A DNA stretch of 64,000 bases, taken from NCBI GenBank assembly GCA_031701365.1, contig GCA_031701365.1_4118.1. One strand, written 5' to 3'. The DNA is from Escherichia coli. GTDB taxonomy: Bacteria; Pseudomonadota; Gammaproteobacteria; Enterobacterales; Enterobacteriaceae. Below are positions 3,659 to 49,616 of this stretch, piece by piece. Numbering within the stretch: the stretch's first letter is position 1; every line of letters starts with the position of its first letter. The notes below the pieces were generated by a model. It was not told the DNA's origin. It saw nothing but the letters and a program-made list of their open reading frames with translations, and did no database searches. The translations under genes and the position numbers were made by a program.

Positions 3659-4624
3659 GTGAAAAAGCTTGATTTAAATACAATTGCCGAAGAAGTTCTG
3701 GATGAATGTTTTGCTAATGAAGAAGTCAACACACTAGAAGCCTTAGATTTCGTTGAAGATAAAGATGAAAATGAAGGTAAAGTACAAAGCAGTTTCAAAT
3801 ATAATATTACACTTAAGCGACCACCAAATGTTTCCAATGAAGATCTAATTCGTGATATTCAAGCTGGTATCAATGTAAAGAAAAACACTGAACTGTTAGT
3901 TCGTTACAATTATGGACTTATTATTGATGTAGCAAGTAAATGTACTTGTTATATCCCATTTGAAGATAAGATTTCATATGGTGTTGAGGGGTTCATGAGA
4001 GCACTAAAAACCTTTGATCTTAATAAGAATGTTAAGTTCATTACCTATGCTTCTTCTAGTATTTACATGACAGTTTATAACGAAAGTTCTGACGCTAACT
4101 ATATGGTACACTTCCCACGTTATATGAGTGTTCATAAGATCAAAGTAAAAAGATTCTGTCAGGAATATATGCGTAAACATGGTGTTCGCCCAACTCCTGA
4201 AATAATCTCAGAGGGTACTGGGATTGAGATTCAGCATGTTAATAACTGTTTGTTATTTCAAAGCGAATACACTTCTCTGGATGCACCATTAGACGGTGTT
4301 ACCGATGGTACACTAGGTGACATTATTCATTCACCTGCTTCTGATTTTAACCTCAATGTTGATAGTATCCGTGCACCTTTACGTTATGCTATCAATGAAC
4401 TGACCAACGAATTGAGTACTAAAGAACGTGAGATTATCCAGCGTGTTCATGGTCTAGGTGAATATGAACCTGAAACGCTTCGTGAGATTGCTGATAATGG
4501 TTTTGTTGATGATAATGGAAAATATGTTAAATCCCGTTCATCAATACACCGAAAGTACAGTGAAGCTATGCAAAAGCTTAAGAAGCTAGTACTTGCAAAA
4601 GGGTACGAATACGAAGATTTCTAA
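3659..4624 (+). CDS. sigma-70 family RNA polymerase sigma factor (regions 2, 3 and 4 recognisable)
   Basis: 321 aa. GVEGFMRALKTFDLNKNVKFITYASSSI resembles region 2, VHFPRYMSVHKIKV...HGVRPTPEIISE resembles the IRIPVHM...GREPTPEE region 2.4/3, and C-terminal LSTKEREIIQRVHGL...TLREIADNGF...SRSSIHRKYSEAMQKLK is a region-4 HTH. RBS AGGAGA. Confidence 0.75.
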   Translation: MKKLDLNTIAEEVLDECFANEEVNTLEALDFVEDKDENEGKVQSSFKYNITLKRPPNVSNEDLIRDIQAGINVKKNTELLVRYNYGLIIDVASKCTCYIPFEDKISYGVEGFMRALKTFDLNKNVKFITYASSSIYMTVYNESSDANYMVHFPRYMSVHKIKVKRFCQEYMRKHGVRPTPEIISEGTGIEIQHVNNCLLFQSEYTSLDAPLDGVTDGTLGDIIHSPASDFNLNVDSIRAPLRYAINELTNELSTKEREIIQRVHGLGEYEPETLREIADNGFVDDNGKYVKSRSSIHRKYSEAMQKLKKLVLAKGYEYEDF

Positions 4625-4628
4625 AGAA

Positions 4629-4658
4629 AAAAGGTTGGCTTATGCCAACCTTTTTTTA
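4629..4658 (+). terminator. intrinsic terminator
   Basis: hairpin AAGGTTGGC-TTAT-GCCAACCTT followed by T7 run directly after sigma-gene stop. Confidence 0.75.
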
Positions 4659-5180
4659 TGGGATGAAGTAAAAGTTTGTGATATAATTATCTTGTACAAT
4701 TCTGTTGGCATGATATTCATGTACCTGATCCACTCGAAAACGTAGAGGGCAGTTGAGCAGTCCGACAGTGCGAACAGCAAAAGAAACCCGTTAGATGTGG
4801 GCATAGTTTGAACCCCTCACGGCAATGCGGCTGTATAAAGAACCACGTTAGGATAGCTGGTGGTTCCTTGATAGACATATAAGGATAACACCTTACGAAT
4901 TATCTAAGGGAGAGTTATCGAATTTTGTACAGGAAAGTTGCGTCCAAAATTTGAGTACTCACATTAAGTATTTGATTGCATAGATACTTAATGAAGATAC
5001 ACTATGTTTAAAAGTGTAGACCGTCATATGAAACTGAAGTAGAGAGAAACAGGATGACCCGCTTTCGCACTCGTTATGAGTAATCTTCAATGCAATAGCT
5101 CTGATACCATCAGCGTCAAATTTCCCTCCTTGTGGGGGGAAGAAAAATCCCTTCCTCAAATCCCGTCAATATTAAAAGTC

Positions 5181-5209
5181 CTTGACAGTTATTAATCATT
5201 CGCGTAGAA
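5181..5209 (+). promoter_or_regulatory. sigma70-type promoter (TTGACA-17-TAGAAT)
   Basis: hexamers read directly; about 65 nt upstream of the 5275 ORF. Confidence 0.55.
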
Positions 5210-5274
5210 TACGTAGTATTAGAAGCGAACAGACATCTCGAAGAGATGGATGATTAACCATTAAGGAATATCCA

Positions 5275-5484
5275 ATGAATTCAGTAATCTTTTTAGTAGT
5301 CGCTTTCTCTGTTAATTCCGGTATACAAATAACCCCAATGAATTCCATGAATCAATGCATAGCAGTACGTGATAGTACATACGAACAAGTAAACAAAGAT
5401 ATTTGGATTACAGTTAATAAAGAACAAATGTGGTGTTACAATAGTAATACTAACACAAAGCTTATTGTAGGACAAACTCAATGA
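5275..5484 (+). CDS. hypothetical protein
   Basis: 69-aa ORF, RBS AAGGAA. Confidence 0.5.
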   Translation: MNSVIFLVVAFSVNSGIQITPMNSMNQCIAVRDSTYEQVNKDIWITVNKEQMWCYNSNTNTKLIVGQTQ

Positions 5485-5711
5485 GTTATGGTGTTCGTTT
5501 TGAGATTCGTTCTATTGTCATCGATGCAGAGAAACAAGTATCGTTAGATGGTGATATACGTGAAATTTATCTATCATGTATCCGTGCGAAATCTGAAGCA
5601 GATGCCTTAGTACAAATGTATAGTTTTAACTTTTCAAATGGATTCTATTTGGTACGAGTTGTTGAAGTTAAAAAAGTAATTCTTGGTTGTTGCATAGAAG
5701 GAATAATGTAA
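5481..5711 (+). CDS. hypothetical protein
   Basis: 76-aa ORF, ATGA overlap. Confidence 0.55.
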   Translation: MSYGVRFEIRSIVIDAEKQVSLDGDIREIYLSCIRAKSEADALVQMYSFNFSNGFYLVRVVEVKKVILGCCIEGIM

Positions 5712-6500
5712 ATGAGCACTATCGATGAACTGATTCAACGGAATTCAAAATATTACCAACCATCAGAAATTGTGGATAACATTACTAAATCTGAGTTTGG
5801 ACCGAACACACGCAAACTCATTCATGTAATGTCACGTGATGGCTTTAAATGTGATTGTTGTGGTGAATCAAATGTAGTATTCACTTTACACAAGCACAGT
5901 ACTAAAGAACGTTATAAATTCAGACCTTATGTACTTAAAGGGAAACGTCTTGTACGCATGACGTTAGACCATAACGTACTGGACTGTCTTCAGGGCGGTA
6001 ATGATAAAGAGAACATGACTGCATTGTGTGAAGATTGTAACGCATTACGTCAGCATAAGTTTGCTGAGTACAGTGAGTTTAAACACTGGTATCATAACGC
6101 GGATCGTTCAATCGAGCCTGACGTTAACTACTGCTTCATTGAGTACATTAAGAATGCAAAAGATACATACATTCTTAAATCAATGTCACCTATTACCGTG
6201 TTTCCTGAGAACCTATTCACTACATTAAAGAATAGTTTTATTGTAGGTGATATTGATGCATTCAAGTATTTTGACAAAGGTGCAAAACATTTTGAAATTC
6301 AATGTCTTAGTACTGCACTATGTGAACTCATTAAAATTTACATAAAAGAGTATTTGGGTATTGACAATGTACGTGTACCAGAGTATACTTTTTCTATTGA
6401 ATTCAATTGTGAATCAATCAAAGAGTTTGGAATTCTTTTCAATAAACAAATAGAACTTGCAATTCAAAACGAAATCAAGTACTATACTACTAACATTTAA
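5712..6500 (+). CDS. HNH-family endonuclease (putative free-standing homing endonuclease)
   Basis: 262 aa with CDCCGE zinc knuckle and LDHNVLDCLQGGNDKENMTALCEDCNALRQHK, matching the HNH signature DH..GG..N..LC..CN..K. Confidence 0.7.
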   Translation: MSTIDELIQRNSKYYQPSEIVDNITKSEFGPNTRKLIHVMSRDGFKCDCCGESNVVFTLHKHSTKERYKFRPYVLKGKRLVRMTLDHNVLDCLQGGNDKENMTALCEDCNALRQHKFAEYSEFKHWYHNADRSIEPDVNYCFIEYIKNAKDTYILKSMSPITVFPENLFTTLKNSFIVGDIDAFKYFDKGAKHFEIQCLSTALCELIKIYIKEYLGIDNVRVPEYTFSIEFNCESIKEFGILFNKQIELAIQNEIKYYTTNI

Positions 6501-15822: not shown

Positions 15823-15937
15823 TTTAACTTTGGGACAACCATTCTTATTATGATATAATGTTTTATGTCATTCGATATAAATGACAACGGAACTATAAAT
15901 ATTATAGTAAAATTTATCTCTTATAGGAGTTATAAAA

Positions 15938-16321
15938 ATGGTTGATAAATGGAATAAGAAAGATCCATCACATGATGTTGATATTTCTGGTCTAGACAAT
16001 GCACATAAGCACAAGTATCTAGATTCACTAGGTCTTCTAAAACCAGACCAAAGTCTTGCACATGATCGTCCATCCCGTGAAAAAGCATTTAGCCTAGAAT
16101 CACTAGGTCATGAGCTTAATCGTGTGTTTGAGGATCACCCAATCTATGTACGTGATATTATCGAGAAACTTAAAGTAACTCCTAAAGAGCACTTTAAAGC
16201 AACAGTACACTCTGCATTCCGTGCATTGCATGATTCTCTCAAGAAAACTCACAATCTTCGTAAAATTCATGATGAAATCGTGAATGCAATCGAAAGTGAA
16301 AAACATAAGTTCAAGAAGTAA
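15938..16321 (+). CDS. hypothetical protein (shares YLDSLGLL motif with the 16566 gene)
   Basis: 127 aa, RBS TAGGAG. Confidence 0.65.
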   Translation: MVDKWNKKDPSHDVDISGLDNAHKHKYLDSLGLLKPDQSLAHDRPSREKAFSLESLGHELNRVFEDHPIYVRDIIEKLKVTPKEHFKATVHSAFRALHDSLKKTHNLRKIHDEIVNAIESEKHKFKK

Positions 16322-47619: not shown

Positions 47620-49556
47620 TTAAACACATATAGACAGGGGAAGCTCCGTAGTGGAAGCATTATACAGGCTTTAACATATGTTGCATATGTTAAAATTCAG
47701 CCTGGACAAATGCGATCACTAGGATTCTCCCCAGGCTAAACCCCGTAATCATAGGTAGTCATAAGTAATCATATATAAACATTTATATGAGCACAGTAGA
47801 ATCACAGAATGATTATATATGATTCAGTACTGATTAGTATAGACAAGATTGCTCAAGAATGCACGGAAATGTGTGTGAATGATTCAGTACTGATATGCCA
47901 CTAAGTAGGCAGAGGAAGTCTGCCGTACTTTGTAGTTTCCAAGCTCCTTTTCCATTTTGCAAATTACATCAAATGTAATCAAAAGTAATCACGCAATGAT
48001 TAGTACTGAATTATTACTTTCACCTTAATTTCAATTACCCCTTGAGGCTCCAGCAAAAAGTTGGTTAGTACTCCATCCTAAATCTCGATCCTAAAAATTT
48101 TGGAGTACCTATGAAATAAAAGTTGGATCTTCGAAAGTTGAAATTTACGTTGGGACATATAGGATTTGTGGGATATAATGAGTTTTGTAGCGATACAGAT
48201 TATACGATTTCAGTACTGAAAGATGAAAGAAAGTTATTGACTTTATGATTCAGTACTGTATAATGTTCTACATAGGGTGATGAGTTGCTGCGAACAATTC
48301 ATTTACTCTACCTCCTGTCGTGAGACAGTACAGAAAAGATAGTTCCTCCTGTGGTGGTACATCTTTTTGAACCTCATATGAAAATTGTAATAACAGTACT
48401 GATATTAACAGAATGGTGTCAGTACTGATTTTAATCTAAAGCATTATGCCACCAGCTTGTGCTGGTGGATTCCCTCTAACAGTATTCAGTACTACATGAT
48501 GGTCTTCATCCTCCTAGGGTAACATAGTGAGGGCTATGATGGCAGTACTGAATACTCCCTTTCAAAAGATAGATCTATGGTATAGTACTGACGGATTTTG
48601 GGTGTAGTTACCCTGGATGGATTTTGGGCGTAGATATGTCTAGCCCTCCAGAAGTCTGGAAGTAAAGATGGCTATCCATCTAGACGGCTAAACGGCTAGA
48701 TTTCTGGATGGCTGGATGGCTAGACGTTTGGACGGCTAAACGGCTAAACGGCTAAACGGCTAAACGGCTAAACGGCTAGATGGTTACACGTCTGGAAGTA
48801 TAGACGGCTAAATCAAAATTTTATTTTGTTTTTTCCAATAGTTCCCCTACCGCGTGGGGATAGTTTCCCCGCAGTATCAGGAGTTAGATTTTTCTGAATC
48901 TGGAATTATTATCTTATAAACTGGGGGCAATGTCAACGGCCAGGACGGATATTTTTAAAATTTTTTCAGTACTGAATTTTGGGCGTAACTATGCACCCGG
49001 TGGGCTTGAGTCTTTCTCGACTTGATGGAACTATTATACAGTACTGAAAAAATAAAGCAATACCCTGGAAGCAAAAAAGTTTTAATTAATTTGCTTGCTA
49101 TCCTGGGCCGGACTATGGTACTATATTTCAGTACTGAGAAAGTGCGTTGACCTGCTAGGGTGCGGGAGTGTATCCTTTTTTTATATCTTGAATTTTGGGC
49201 GTAATTCCGCACCCCCTGGGGTATCCGCTTTCTCGCGTCTATGTAGTAATTATACGCTTTTTCAGGATCAAGTCAATACCTAAAAACAAAATAATTGAAA
49301 ATAATTTAATGCGTTTAAACGGCATGTAACGCCCTGGATTGTTGGGAGTGGGGCAAATGTATAGCTTAGGTGTATTAATGCGTTAGAATGCGTCTGAGGC
49401 CGTTTTACGGGGTATAGGGATGATTTGGTGGATTGATTCAGTACTGAATAATAGTACTACTATATAGAAAGATAGTTCCCCTGGATGGTTGCAGTACTGA
49501 ATGACAGTTCCCCTATATAGAAAGAAAACTATTTTAAAAGTACATGTAGAAAGTAC
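47620..49556. other. ORF-free region of about 1.9 kb, dense in AGTACT palindromes and short repeats
   Basis: no credible ORF on the plus strand; more than 20 copies of CAGTACTG-like palindromes; contains the tandem 8-mer array and GCACCCGGTGGG-type elements. Confidence 0.6.
48732..48779. repeat. tandem direct repeat (ACGGCTAA) x5 plus one degenerate copy
   Basis: five perfect 8-mers followed by ACGGCTAG; degenerate copies (GGCTAGAT, GGATGGCTGGATGG, GACGGCTAAATC) flank it from about 48610 to 48815. Confidence 0.85.
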
Positions 49557-49616
49557 TTGCAAACTATGTTTAAAGGCGTATAATGTTTTACATCGAGAGC
49601 GGGAACTCTTCCCGCT
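49557..49616 (+). promoter_or_regulatory. PeSL-like promoter plus 5' stem-loop
   Basis: TTGCAA, 16-nt spacer, TATAAT, then GTTTTACATC and hairpin GAGCGGGAACTCTTCCCGCT. Confidence 0.65.

Follow-up and report, generated by a model that had tools for sequence, protein, structure and literature searches.

A gap of 650 bp without a credible open reading frame (ORF) is present at positions 4625–5274 of the 64,000 nt Escherichia coli sequence analyzed here (contig GCA_031701365.1_4118.1; this whole stretch is termed the window). It is between a sigma-70-family gene and the next credible ORF, which starts at position 5275. The gap carries a large structured RNA whose family is undescribed: it is common to 62 jumbo phages and to small integrative islands of Enterobacteriaceae, and it has no match in Rfam 15. 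There is high confidence in the family, in its fold, in which strand is transcribed, in the promoter motif and in the absence of coding potential. Positions 4659 to ~5170 probably represent a stand-alone gene for a large non-coding RNA (ncRNA), which may act in trans, as judged from comparative sequence data.

Over positions 4600–5300 the sequence matches Escherichia phage vB_EcoM_G17 (MK327931.1, reverse strand) and phage Sharanji at 100% identity and phage 121Q at 99.7%. All three are Asteriusvirus jumbo phages of 350–370 kb. An earlier note on this DNA had pointed to an ORF-free, GC-enriched stretch of 520 bp after the sigma gene and had proposed a structured ncRNA, or else the remnant of an intron or mobile insertion. 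The stretch is indeed ORF-free and is larger than 520 bp. The ORFs within 4625–5274 are at most 66 amino acids (aa) long, and their strand and frame vary between homologs. The GC enrichment is present and is modest, 0.46 at positions 4700–4899 vs ~0.30–0.35 in the surroundings. The structured ncRNA is strongly supported by covariation, by a promoter of its own and by the lack of a conserved ORF.

Conservation of secondary structure

A profile built from homologs and searched with nhmmer locates the element at positions 4688–5180 (344.8 bits, E = 6.6e-105). Covariation was tested on a MAFFT alignment of 52 distinct sequences, consisting of the window copy, 43 phage copies and 8 island copies. 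The structure model has 99 base pairs in 20 helices and three pseudoknots. Controls consisted of 3' partners slid by 1–3 columns and of 500 shuffles. Paired cells amount to 92.2% vs 36–47% with slid partners, compensatory cells to 826 vs 75–125, and the covariation score is 0.451 vs 0.06–0.09; the model was built from the tested sequences and the slid-partner control flatters it somewhat. The pairs that change on both sides number 72 of the 99, and no shuffle reaches any of the measures (0/500). A blind scan for double-sided covariation finds at least 15 helices, including the 7 bp pseudoknot PK2, in which the P10 loop pairs with a stretch 115 nt further downstream. What speaks against an artefact is the extent of the double-sided covariation, together with the fact that PK2 was recovered blind. 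The earlier note had named conserved structure as a check on the ncRNA, and the covariation among the 52 sequences provides it.

The elements of the structure, with positions in the window, are:

4694..5120, + strand: RNA core, from the predicted 5' end to the first conserved tail CAGCGTCAA (5111–5119); from nhmmer, alignment and covariation
4702..4866, + strand: 5' domain (P1–P6); helices 1–8, covariation
4702–4708/4762–4768, + strand: P1, 5' domain
4709–4721, + strand: leader hairpin, 5' domain
4725–4735/4745–4752, + strand: P2, 5' domain
4757–4759/4769–4771, + strand: pseudoknot helix GCA/TGC; its loop is the 3' strand of P1
4774–4778/4830–4834, + strand: P4, 5' domain
4788–4791/4819–4822, + strand: P5, 5' domain
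4799–4801/4813–4815, + strand: P5a, weak, 50% paired
4840–4846/4860–4866, + strand: P6, 5' domain
4870..5111, + strand: 3' domain (P7–P15); helices 9–19, closed by P7
4870–4874 (GATAG)/5107–5111 (CCATC), + strand: P7; conserved, barely varies, no double-sided changes
4880–4884/4891–4895, + strand: P8, 3' domain
4912–4915/4957–4960, + strand: P9, 3' domain
4918–4927/4945–4954, + strand: P9 inner stem with a 17 nt loop; read from the sequence only
4962–4971/4984–4993, + strand: P10, 3' domain
4998–5002/5014–5018, + strand: P11, 3' domain
5023–5027/5054–5058, + strand: P12 pseudoknot; crosses P13 and P14
5035–5039/5085–5089, + strand: P13, 3' domain
5042–5046/5062–5066, + strand: P14, 3' domain
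5069–5072/5078–5081, + strand: P15, 3' domain
4975–4981 (ATTGCAT, P10 loop)/5090–5096 (ATGCAAT), + strand: long-range pseudoknot PK2, helix 14; from the blind covariation scan
5122..5169, + strand: 3' extension, P16 hairpin and second tail; conserved in 52/52 sequences
5122–5129 (TTCCCTCC)/5134–5141 (GGGGGGAA), + strand: P16, 3' extension hairpin
5157–5169, + strand: second tail CAAATCCCGTCAA; repeats the CGTCA(A/G) motif of the first tail

Helices 1–8 are 90–100% paired with changes on both sides, with the exception of P5a. The pseudoknot helices 4, 14 and 16 are 98–100% paired and have 2, 7 and 3 covarying pairs, respectively. In PK2 all seven pairs vary on both sides and 97.7% of the cells are paired; its variants are ATTGCAT/ATGCAAT, ATTGTAT/ATACAAT and GTCGAAT/ATTCGAC. 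P12, P13 and P14 are 100% paired with 3–4 covarying pairs each. P16 shows only changes between C and U opposite an invariant G-run and has no double-sided changes. Since G-U pairs far exceed A-C oppositions (257 vs 97 overall, 14:0 in P13, 31:0 in P14 and 94:0 in P16), the + strand is the pairing strand, and the wobble tolerance points to RNA. A comparison of the window copy with the UE-S1 ortholog (92% identity) reveals compensatory changes at 4708/4762, 4733/4747, 4774/4834, 4775/4833 and 4846/4860. There is one difference in the 200 nt at positions 4925–5125; the leader hairpin and the 3' flank have diverged strongly.

The family has invariant junction blocks: GAUGAG, GAAACCCG, CGGCAAU, GAUAGA, UAAGGGA, GACCGU, GAAAC-G, ACCCGC and CGUCA. 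The window copy has every helix and every invariant block and lacks the terminator hairpin that 22/52 copies display. A pairing of the leader (UUGAC) with the CGUCA(A/G) tails was judged by eye and rejected, as it shows no covariation in copies of the type of locus L024.

A small module, consisting of a GAC/GUC stem with an 11 nt loop (e.g., AAUAUAGAUCC or AGUAAAGUUGC), is found at the tip of P9, at the tip of P15, at both or at neither, depending on the copy. In the window its site is 4928–4944, with the loop UACAGGAAAGUUGCGUC, and the homologs are at alignment columns ~447–470 and 620–645. From this placement the tip module appears to behave like a portable docking or protein-binding element.

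Past the second tail, most phage and island copies have an AT-rich spacer, followed by a long hairpin whose stem varies and whose loop is the conserved (A/G)AACG(A/T)AGTGA, and then a hairpin with a C-GAA-G loop. This downstream module was judged by inspection, e.g., in loci L020, L017, L029 and L063. It overlaps a sigma-70-like promoter in several paralog types, and the promoter spacer contains an inverted repeat.

Promoter and transcript ends

The signals at the 5' side of the RNA gene are:

~4626..4657, + strand: intrinsic terminator of the sigma-factor gene, AAAAAAGGTTGGC-TTAT-GCCAACCTTTTTTT; upstream boundary of the RNA gene
4659..4687, + strand: RNA-gene promoter, the -35-like TGGGAT at 4659–4664, a 17 bp spacer and the extended -10 TGA+TATAAT (TGATATAAT) at 4679–4687

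The promoter abuts the terminator, and the transcription start is predicted near position 4694. The predicted ends would give an RNA of about 430 nt up to the first tail, or of about 480 nt if the 3' hairpin is included. The earlier note had placed its stretch between a terminator and a sigma70-type promoter, and both are present. The terminator has an ARNOLD annotation in the identical G17 record and is weakly aligned by terminator-type small RNA models in the Rfam scan; the promoter TTGACA-17-TAGAAT at 5182–5210 has 11/12 matches in a promoter scan. As boundaries they hold only in part: the promoter of the RNA itself was missed and the downstream promoter was taken as the limit. The terminator at 4626–4657 is also overlooked by a simple terminator scan, probably due to the flanking A-run and T-run, which lengthen the stem and consume the T tail; negatives from that scan need care.

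A -10 hexamer is present 40–90 nt upstream of the core in 44/44 phage copies. It has the extended form TGnTATAAT in 41 of these, and the other three have a TATAAT/TATACT hexamer. TGGGAC, TGGAAC or TGAAAC is found 17 bp before the extended -10, such that the promoter motif of the family is TG[GA][GA]A[CT]-N17-TATAAT. This arrangement is also seen in the island copies. In the window the motif is found 4 times vs 0.79 expected. A second perfect match (TGGGAC-N17-TATAAT with TG, positions 15831–15859) is upstream of an ORF at 15938–16321, and the motif may represent a phage promoter class. At the 3' side, a hairpin and T-run terminator is located between the first tail and P16 in 22/52 copies; the window copy has none.

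Distribution and paralogs

Sensitive blastn against 50,697 phage records gives matches at 257 places in 62 records, with 3–5 copies per genome. All 62 are jumbo phages of 310–386 kb, and they include Asteriusvirus, GAP32, CBB, BF, Yen9-04, Munch and XbC2. Their hosts are Escherichia, Salmonella, Erwinia, Yersinia, Serratia, Pectobacterium, Cronobacter, Klebsiella and Xanthomonas. The Klebsiella phages RaK2 and K64-1 are not among the blastn matches. Identity drops to ~70% over a core of ~450 nt. The earlier note had asked for an alignment with related phages to see whether the segment is an indel; it is not, and 62/62 matching jumbo-phage records carry it.

The window has no second copy as determined by sequence search and nhmmer. 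The complete genome of phage ECO103 4-12-1, which is 99% identical, has exactly four copies on one strand, at 18.5, 128.5, 208.3 and 261.8 kb, and the window copy corresponds to copy A of these paralogs (A to D). The four have 67–72% mutual identity and unrelated flanks, and their alignment shows invariant blocks between segments with visible compensatory changes. Behind copy C are a bidirectional terminator and then a convergent gene. In close relatives the RNA core is better conserved than the flanks.

Two independent motif scans of IMG/VR show 19 and 51 loci, every one of them from a jumbo-phage contig or a piece of one, and these provide 44 distinct full-length copies of 409–542 nt. The same motif is found at 105 loci in metagenomes, 75 of which carry the element. 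With one genome per bacterial species there are 17 motif loci and 7 genuine full-length copies (267–343 bits), from Citrobacter, Silvania, Enterobacter, Buttiauxella, two unclassified Enterobacteriaceae and a 2.8 kb contig binned as Clostridium. Among complete E. coli genomes 2/5426 have a copy, at 410 bits, and there is no copy in 72,556 plasmids.

Clustering shows that paralog types are common to several genera, e.g., Yen9-04, GAP32 and three metagenomic jumbo phages share one type. On this basis the duplications are old and each paralog type is retained under selection. No member is more divergent than the window copy, whose nearest relative is at 0.30. In Yersinia and Serratia phages and in one metagenomic phage, one copy has a sigma-factor gene 1.7–4 kb upstream, so that the position relative to the sigma gene is roughly conserved.

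Chromosomal islands that carry the RNA

A single full-length copy of the RNA is found in each of about 20 enterobacterial chromosomal islands. Their layout is integrase, RNA, a cI/LexA-like repressor on the opposite strand (helix-turn-helix and S24 peptidase domains) and a divergent Ner-like winged-helix protein. Beyond Ner are a membrane/coiled-coil protein, an LprI-family protein and often a resolvase. The integrase is a tyrosine recombinase or a large serine recombinase, the two being interchangeable, and cI is convergent to the RNA in most islands. The metagenome set has twelve further islands of the integrase-RNA-cI/Ner type. Island loci are L062 (E. coli LR-29-1, NZ_AP027515.1 3473307–3485513), L063, L067, L070, L072, L073 and L078, and further L094, L117, L123, L173, L181 and L182. 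E. coli EEC_W5 and Citrobacter amalonaticus P55 also bear such an island.

No replication or packaging genes are beside the island RNA in the stretches examined. A PADLOC analysis of the island proteins detects no known defence system adjacent to the RNA; PDC-S73 is matched by one of the flanking proteins. The phage has no homolog of any protein of the island module. The island RNAs group in clades of their own that differ by at least 19% from every phage copy, and therefore are not recent captures. The gene content suggests that the integrase-RNA islands are candidate jumbo-phage satellites or candidate anti-jumbo-phage defence islands.

Comparison with known RNA families

At gathering score, Rfam 15 shows no family in the whole window nor in nine homolog loci. 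A cmscan of positions 4560–5320 at E ≤ 10 with lax filters gives only terminator look-alikes (~4600–4740) and chance matches, and no intron, HEARO, RNase P, tmRNA, GOLLD or ROOL. The covariance-model check suggested in the earlier note, with Rfam and intron models, assigned neither a family nor an intron. The catalogued large ornate RNAs GOLLD, ROOL, OLE and raiA have no match at gathering score or at E ≤ 10. RNase P RNA, tmRNA, 6S RNA and SRP RNA have no Rfam match in the window, and ARAGORN finds neither tRNA nor tmRNA there. The motif ACAG-N-ACCCGCUUUC has a superficial likeness to the 3' strand of RNase P P4, and no model supports this likeness.

Several specific candidates were rejected. 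The model-detectable P3–P9 core of a group I intron (RF00028) is absent in the cmscan of 4560–5320. Group II introns (RF00029, RF02001) have no Rfam match, and there is no long ORF within or beside the element. For both intron groups, the sigma gene has a stop codon and a terminator, the paralog flanks are unrelated and island copies are between integrase and repressor genes. HEARO, the IscB omega RNA (RF02033), has no Rfam match; the neighboring 262 aa protein is without a Pfam domain, is missing from a 99% identical phage and is not beside other copies. The proposal of an intron or mobile-insertion remnant in the earlier note is contradicted by these data: no gene is interrupted and there is no group I, group II or HEARO match at E ≤ 10.

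No description of the RNA family was found in the full-text literature searched, including the Sharanji, CBB, PA5oct, virus-RNA-catalogue and PLE/ICP1 papers. Most curated GenBank records annotate nothing over the RNA gene, and UE-S1 marks part of it as a repeat_region. Automated annotation in OR699282.2, PP886230.1, PQ330092.1, OR6991xx and others places 3–5 "hypothetical proteins" over it. The present model corrects these spurious proteins in several GenBank records.

Phages and satellites express abundant large ncRNAs of unknown role (PMC7567579; PMC7318152; for GOLLD/ROOL, PMC12286853). GOLLD and ROOL are large ornate ncRNAs, often encoded by phages or prophages, with Rfam families and cryo-electron microscopy data (PMC12286853). 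The jumbo-phage RNA resembles them in kind only, i.e., RNAs of 400–800 nt with many helices and pseudoknots that are phage-borne, have stand-alone genes and were found via covariation. However, it matches neither Rfam model. The hosts of GOLLD and ROOL are Lactobacillales or rumen and lake taxa, whereas those of the jumbo-phage RNA are Gammaproteobacteria. Unlike GOLLD and ROOL, it is present in 3–5 diverged copies per genome, is not beside tRNA genes and is also found in integrative islands.

Phage PA5oct is a relative of this phage group (PMC7318152). PA5oct ncRNA001–004 (PMC7318152) and the 800 nt RNA of ICP1 and the PLE IIR transcript (PMC7567579) are abundant orphan ncRNAs detected by RNA-seq. 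They are similar to the jumbo-phage RNA in that they come from ORF-free regions of 250–800 bp in large phage or satellite genomes. These RNAs are known by expression, being highly transcribed, whereas the jumbo-phage RNA is known by a structure derived from sequence. ncRNA002 and ncRNA004, the two PA5oct RNAs compared, show no homology to the family with nhmmer --max.

Possible functions of the RNA

The reading of the element as a stand-alone gene follows from the conserved promoter, the terminator in 22/52 copies and the convergent neighbors of copy C and of most island copies. In the proposed mechanism, a host-type RNA polymerase would start at the extended -10 promoter directly behind the sigma-gene terminator, and the transcript folds into two domains (P1–P6 and P7–P15) locked by at least three pseudoknots. 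The folded RNA itself would be the functional product and would act in trans as an abundant ribonucleoprotein (RNP) scaffold, as an RNA-only assembly or possibly as a ribozyme. The invariant junctions may contact a conserved partner, such as the host RNA polymerase, the ribosome or a nuclease. Several gene copies per phage may supply dose and specialised variants, and the islands may use their copy in the same process, or disrupt that process with it, when a jumbo phage infects. An RNA that acts in trans, be it structural, catalytic or an RNP scaffold, is favored because it fits every context, i.e., stand-alone copies, convergent neighbors and islands. As a mechanism it is put forward tentatively, as a good possibility that falls a little short of probable.

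Several observations weigh against this proposal. RNA-like G-U conservation runs past the terminator of 22/52 copies and then ~100 nt further, and because conservation continues beyond the terminator, a simple stand-alone RNA is insufficient. Diverged paralogs are kept position by position and the window copy has no terminator before the ORF at 5275, which a role in cis fits equally well. No partner protein is common to the islands and the phage, where tblastn matched only an unlinked DUF4326 protein, and no transcriptome for these phages was found in the full-text literature. The folding energy of the window copy as a single sequence is unremarkable (z = -1.29); this value is read as uninformative for a pseudoknotted RNA and not as evidence against structure, as the minimum free energy fold misses pseudoknots.

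A cis-acting leader is a rather unlikely explanation, in which the nascent RNA modifies its own RNA polymerase (processive antitermination, as for HK022 put or EAR) or gates read-through of a terminator, and would thereby control the long arrays of genes behind it or, in the islands, antisense transcription that enters cI. It would account for the copies being dispersed, co-oriented with genes and kept position by position, in phage gene arrays that are punctuated by many intrinsic terminators. Transcripts from 4659–4687 should enter the downstream genes in the window, there being no terminator before the ORF at 5275, and the RNA-level conservation of P16 and the second tail beyond the terminator in 22/52 copies implies functional read-through. 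A model for such an RNA is put of phage HK022, which is ~70 nt with two stem-loops and acts on the host RNA polymerase without a phage protein. Both are promoter-proximal structured RNAs before terminators and long phage operons, but the jumbo-phage RNA has three pseudoknots in ~450 nt, and several copies lack an operon downstream. A put-like position fits the window copy and the terminator-bearing copies with conserved RNA beyond; it does not fit copy C or most islands, which face a convergent gene or a bidirectional terminator and have no operon to control. In addition, 30/52 copies offer no terminator for gating, the window copy and several paralog types have a separate sigma-70-type promoter behind the RNA, and known antitermination RNAs are about five times smaller, which also weighs against a leader. 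The promoter and ~500 nt structured transcript could instead be the pre-primer of an RNA-primed replication origin, like ColE1 RNA II or the R-loops at T4 oriF/oriG, with the G-run and the hairpins near the presumed 3' end serving hybrid formation and priming; this is improbable. Multiple origins would serve a 350 kb genome and the island copy would serve island replication. The 3–5 dispersed copies per genome agree with this; R-loop origins of the T4 type number several per large phage genome and need no element-encoded initiator. The islands encode an integrase and a cI/Ner switch and, in the stretch examined, no replication protein. An invariant G6 run is just past the T-run, followed by an AT-rich spacer and hairpins capped by C-GAA-G, and mini-hairpins of the d(GCGAAGC) type are known at phage single-strand origins. 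However, the RNA is absent from all 72,556 plasmids, is far more conserved than ColE1 or T4 origin transcripts, is pseudoknotted and has no evident antisense regulator. There is no GC-skew inflection at any copy, which is a weak test as skew follows transcription here. Three pseudoknots and many invariant junction nucleotides also exceed what known pre-primer RNAs need.

The remnant of a group I or group II intron, or an HNH-associated mobile element similar to HEARO or the IscB omega RNA, is very improbable. The RNA is large and pseudoknotted like ribozymes and an HNH-type gene is 540 bp downstream, but neither the E ≤ 10 scan nor the gathering score gives an Rfam intron or HEARO match. The element is intergenic in every context, without exons and with unrelated paralog flanks. 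The 262 aa HNH-type ORF is in a separate indel cassette that is absent beside other copies, and the RNA positions are stable across genera. It is hardly credible that the conserved segment is a DNA-level repeat, such as a protein-binding or packaging site, or a set of unannotated small protein genes. Repeated cis sites exist in phage genomes and some GenBank records do show 3–5 "hypothetical proteins", but compensatory pair changes with a strand-specific tolerance of G-U are unexpected for duplex sites or coding sequence. The strand and frame of the ORFs differ between copies, and most curated records annotate nothing.

The trans-acting RNA invites a wider and more doubtful proposal, that it represents a new large RNA class (a ribozyme or a reprogrammer of host RNA polymerase or replication) needed by the phages, with the islands as the first recognised satellites or decoy-type defence. 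If this is true, islands would exploit or sabotage a helper phage via RNA and not via protein. Earlier large RNAs that were as dense in pseudoknots and invariant junctions proved to be ribozymes, RNP cores or RNA-only assemblies, and a new class is a rare find. The multi-copy state, the distinct paralog types kept across genera and the presence in islands pose testable questions, i.e., why giant phages need a large RNA, whether jumbo phages have satellites and whether islands hijack or block them through a common RNA. The RNA is present in culturable E. coli phages under therapy development (121Q, PBECO4, G17, phAPEC6 and others) and is thus open to experiment.

Flanking genes and other features of the window

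The sigma-70-family gene is at positions 3659–4624, with Pfam regions 2, 3 and 4. It is complete and has its own terminator. Downstream of the RNA are:

5170..5260, + strand: downstream region with the promoter 5182–5210 and two hairpins, then the ribosome-binding site and ATG of the ORF at 5275
5199–5203 (TTCGC)/5225–5229 (GCGAA), + strand: hairpin overlapping the promoter, with ACGTAGT in the loop
5234–5248, + strand: hairpin CATCTC-GAA-GAGATG before the ORF at 5275

The ORF at 5275 has its own ribosome-binding site and ATG. Two small ORFs are between the spacer and a 262 aa ORF at 5712–6500, ~540 bp past the RNA, which is annotated as "HNH endonuclease" in 121Q. A DH...N...CxxC motif is visible in this protein, which has no Pfam match. 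The earlier note was correct about the HNH gene nearby; its significance for the RNA falls away. The cassette 5454–6491, consisting of the 3' part of a 69 aa ORF, a 76 aa ORF and the 262 aa ORF, is present in 121Q and UE-S1 and is swapped for ~86 bp in the 99% identical phage ECO103 4-12-1. Because it is missing there, the closeness of the HNH gene is a coincidence due to an unrelated indel. No HNH gene adjoins copies B–D. The cassette 5454–6491 suggests a free-standing homing-endonuclease indel.

A second ORF-poor stretch of ~2.5 kb is at positions 47000–49580 and has no + strand ORF of at least 70 aa. It includes a promoter of the RNA-gene type with one mismatch (48151–48179) and tandem repeats at 48679–48812, with ACGGCTAA repeated six times and units of 16 and 24 nt. 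This stretch may mark a genome-end or terminal-repeat boundary, or may be an origin or a further non-coding locus. An 18 nt word that is identical to positions 5001–5018 at 16/18 nt is found at 49563, 50340, 51019, 51579 and 52381, with a spacing of 560–800 bp. It is probably an intergenic signal that recurs through an array of small + strand ORFs.

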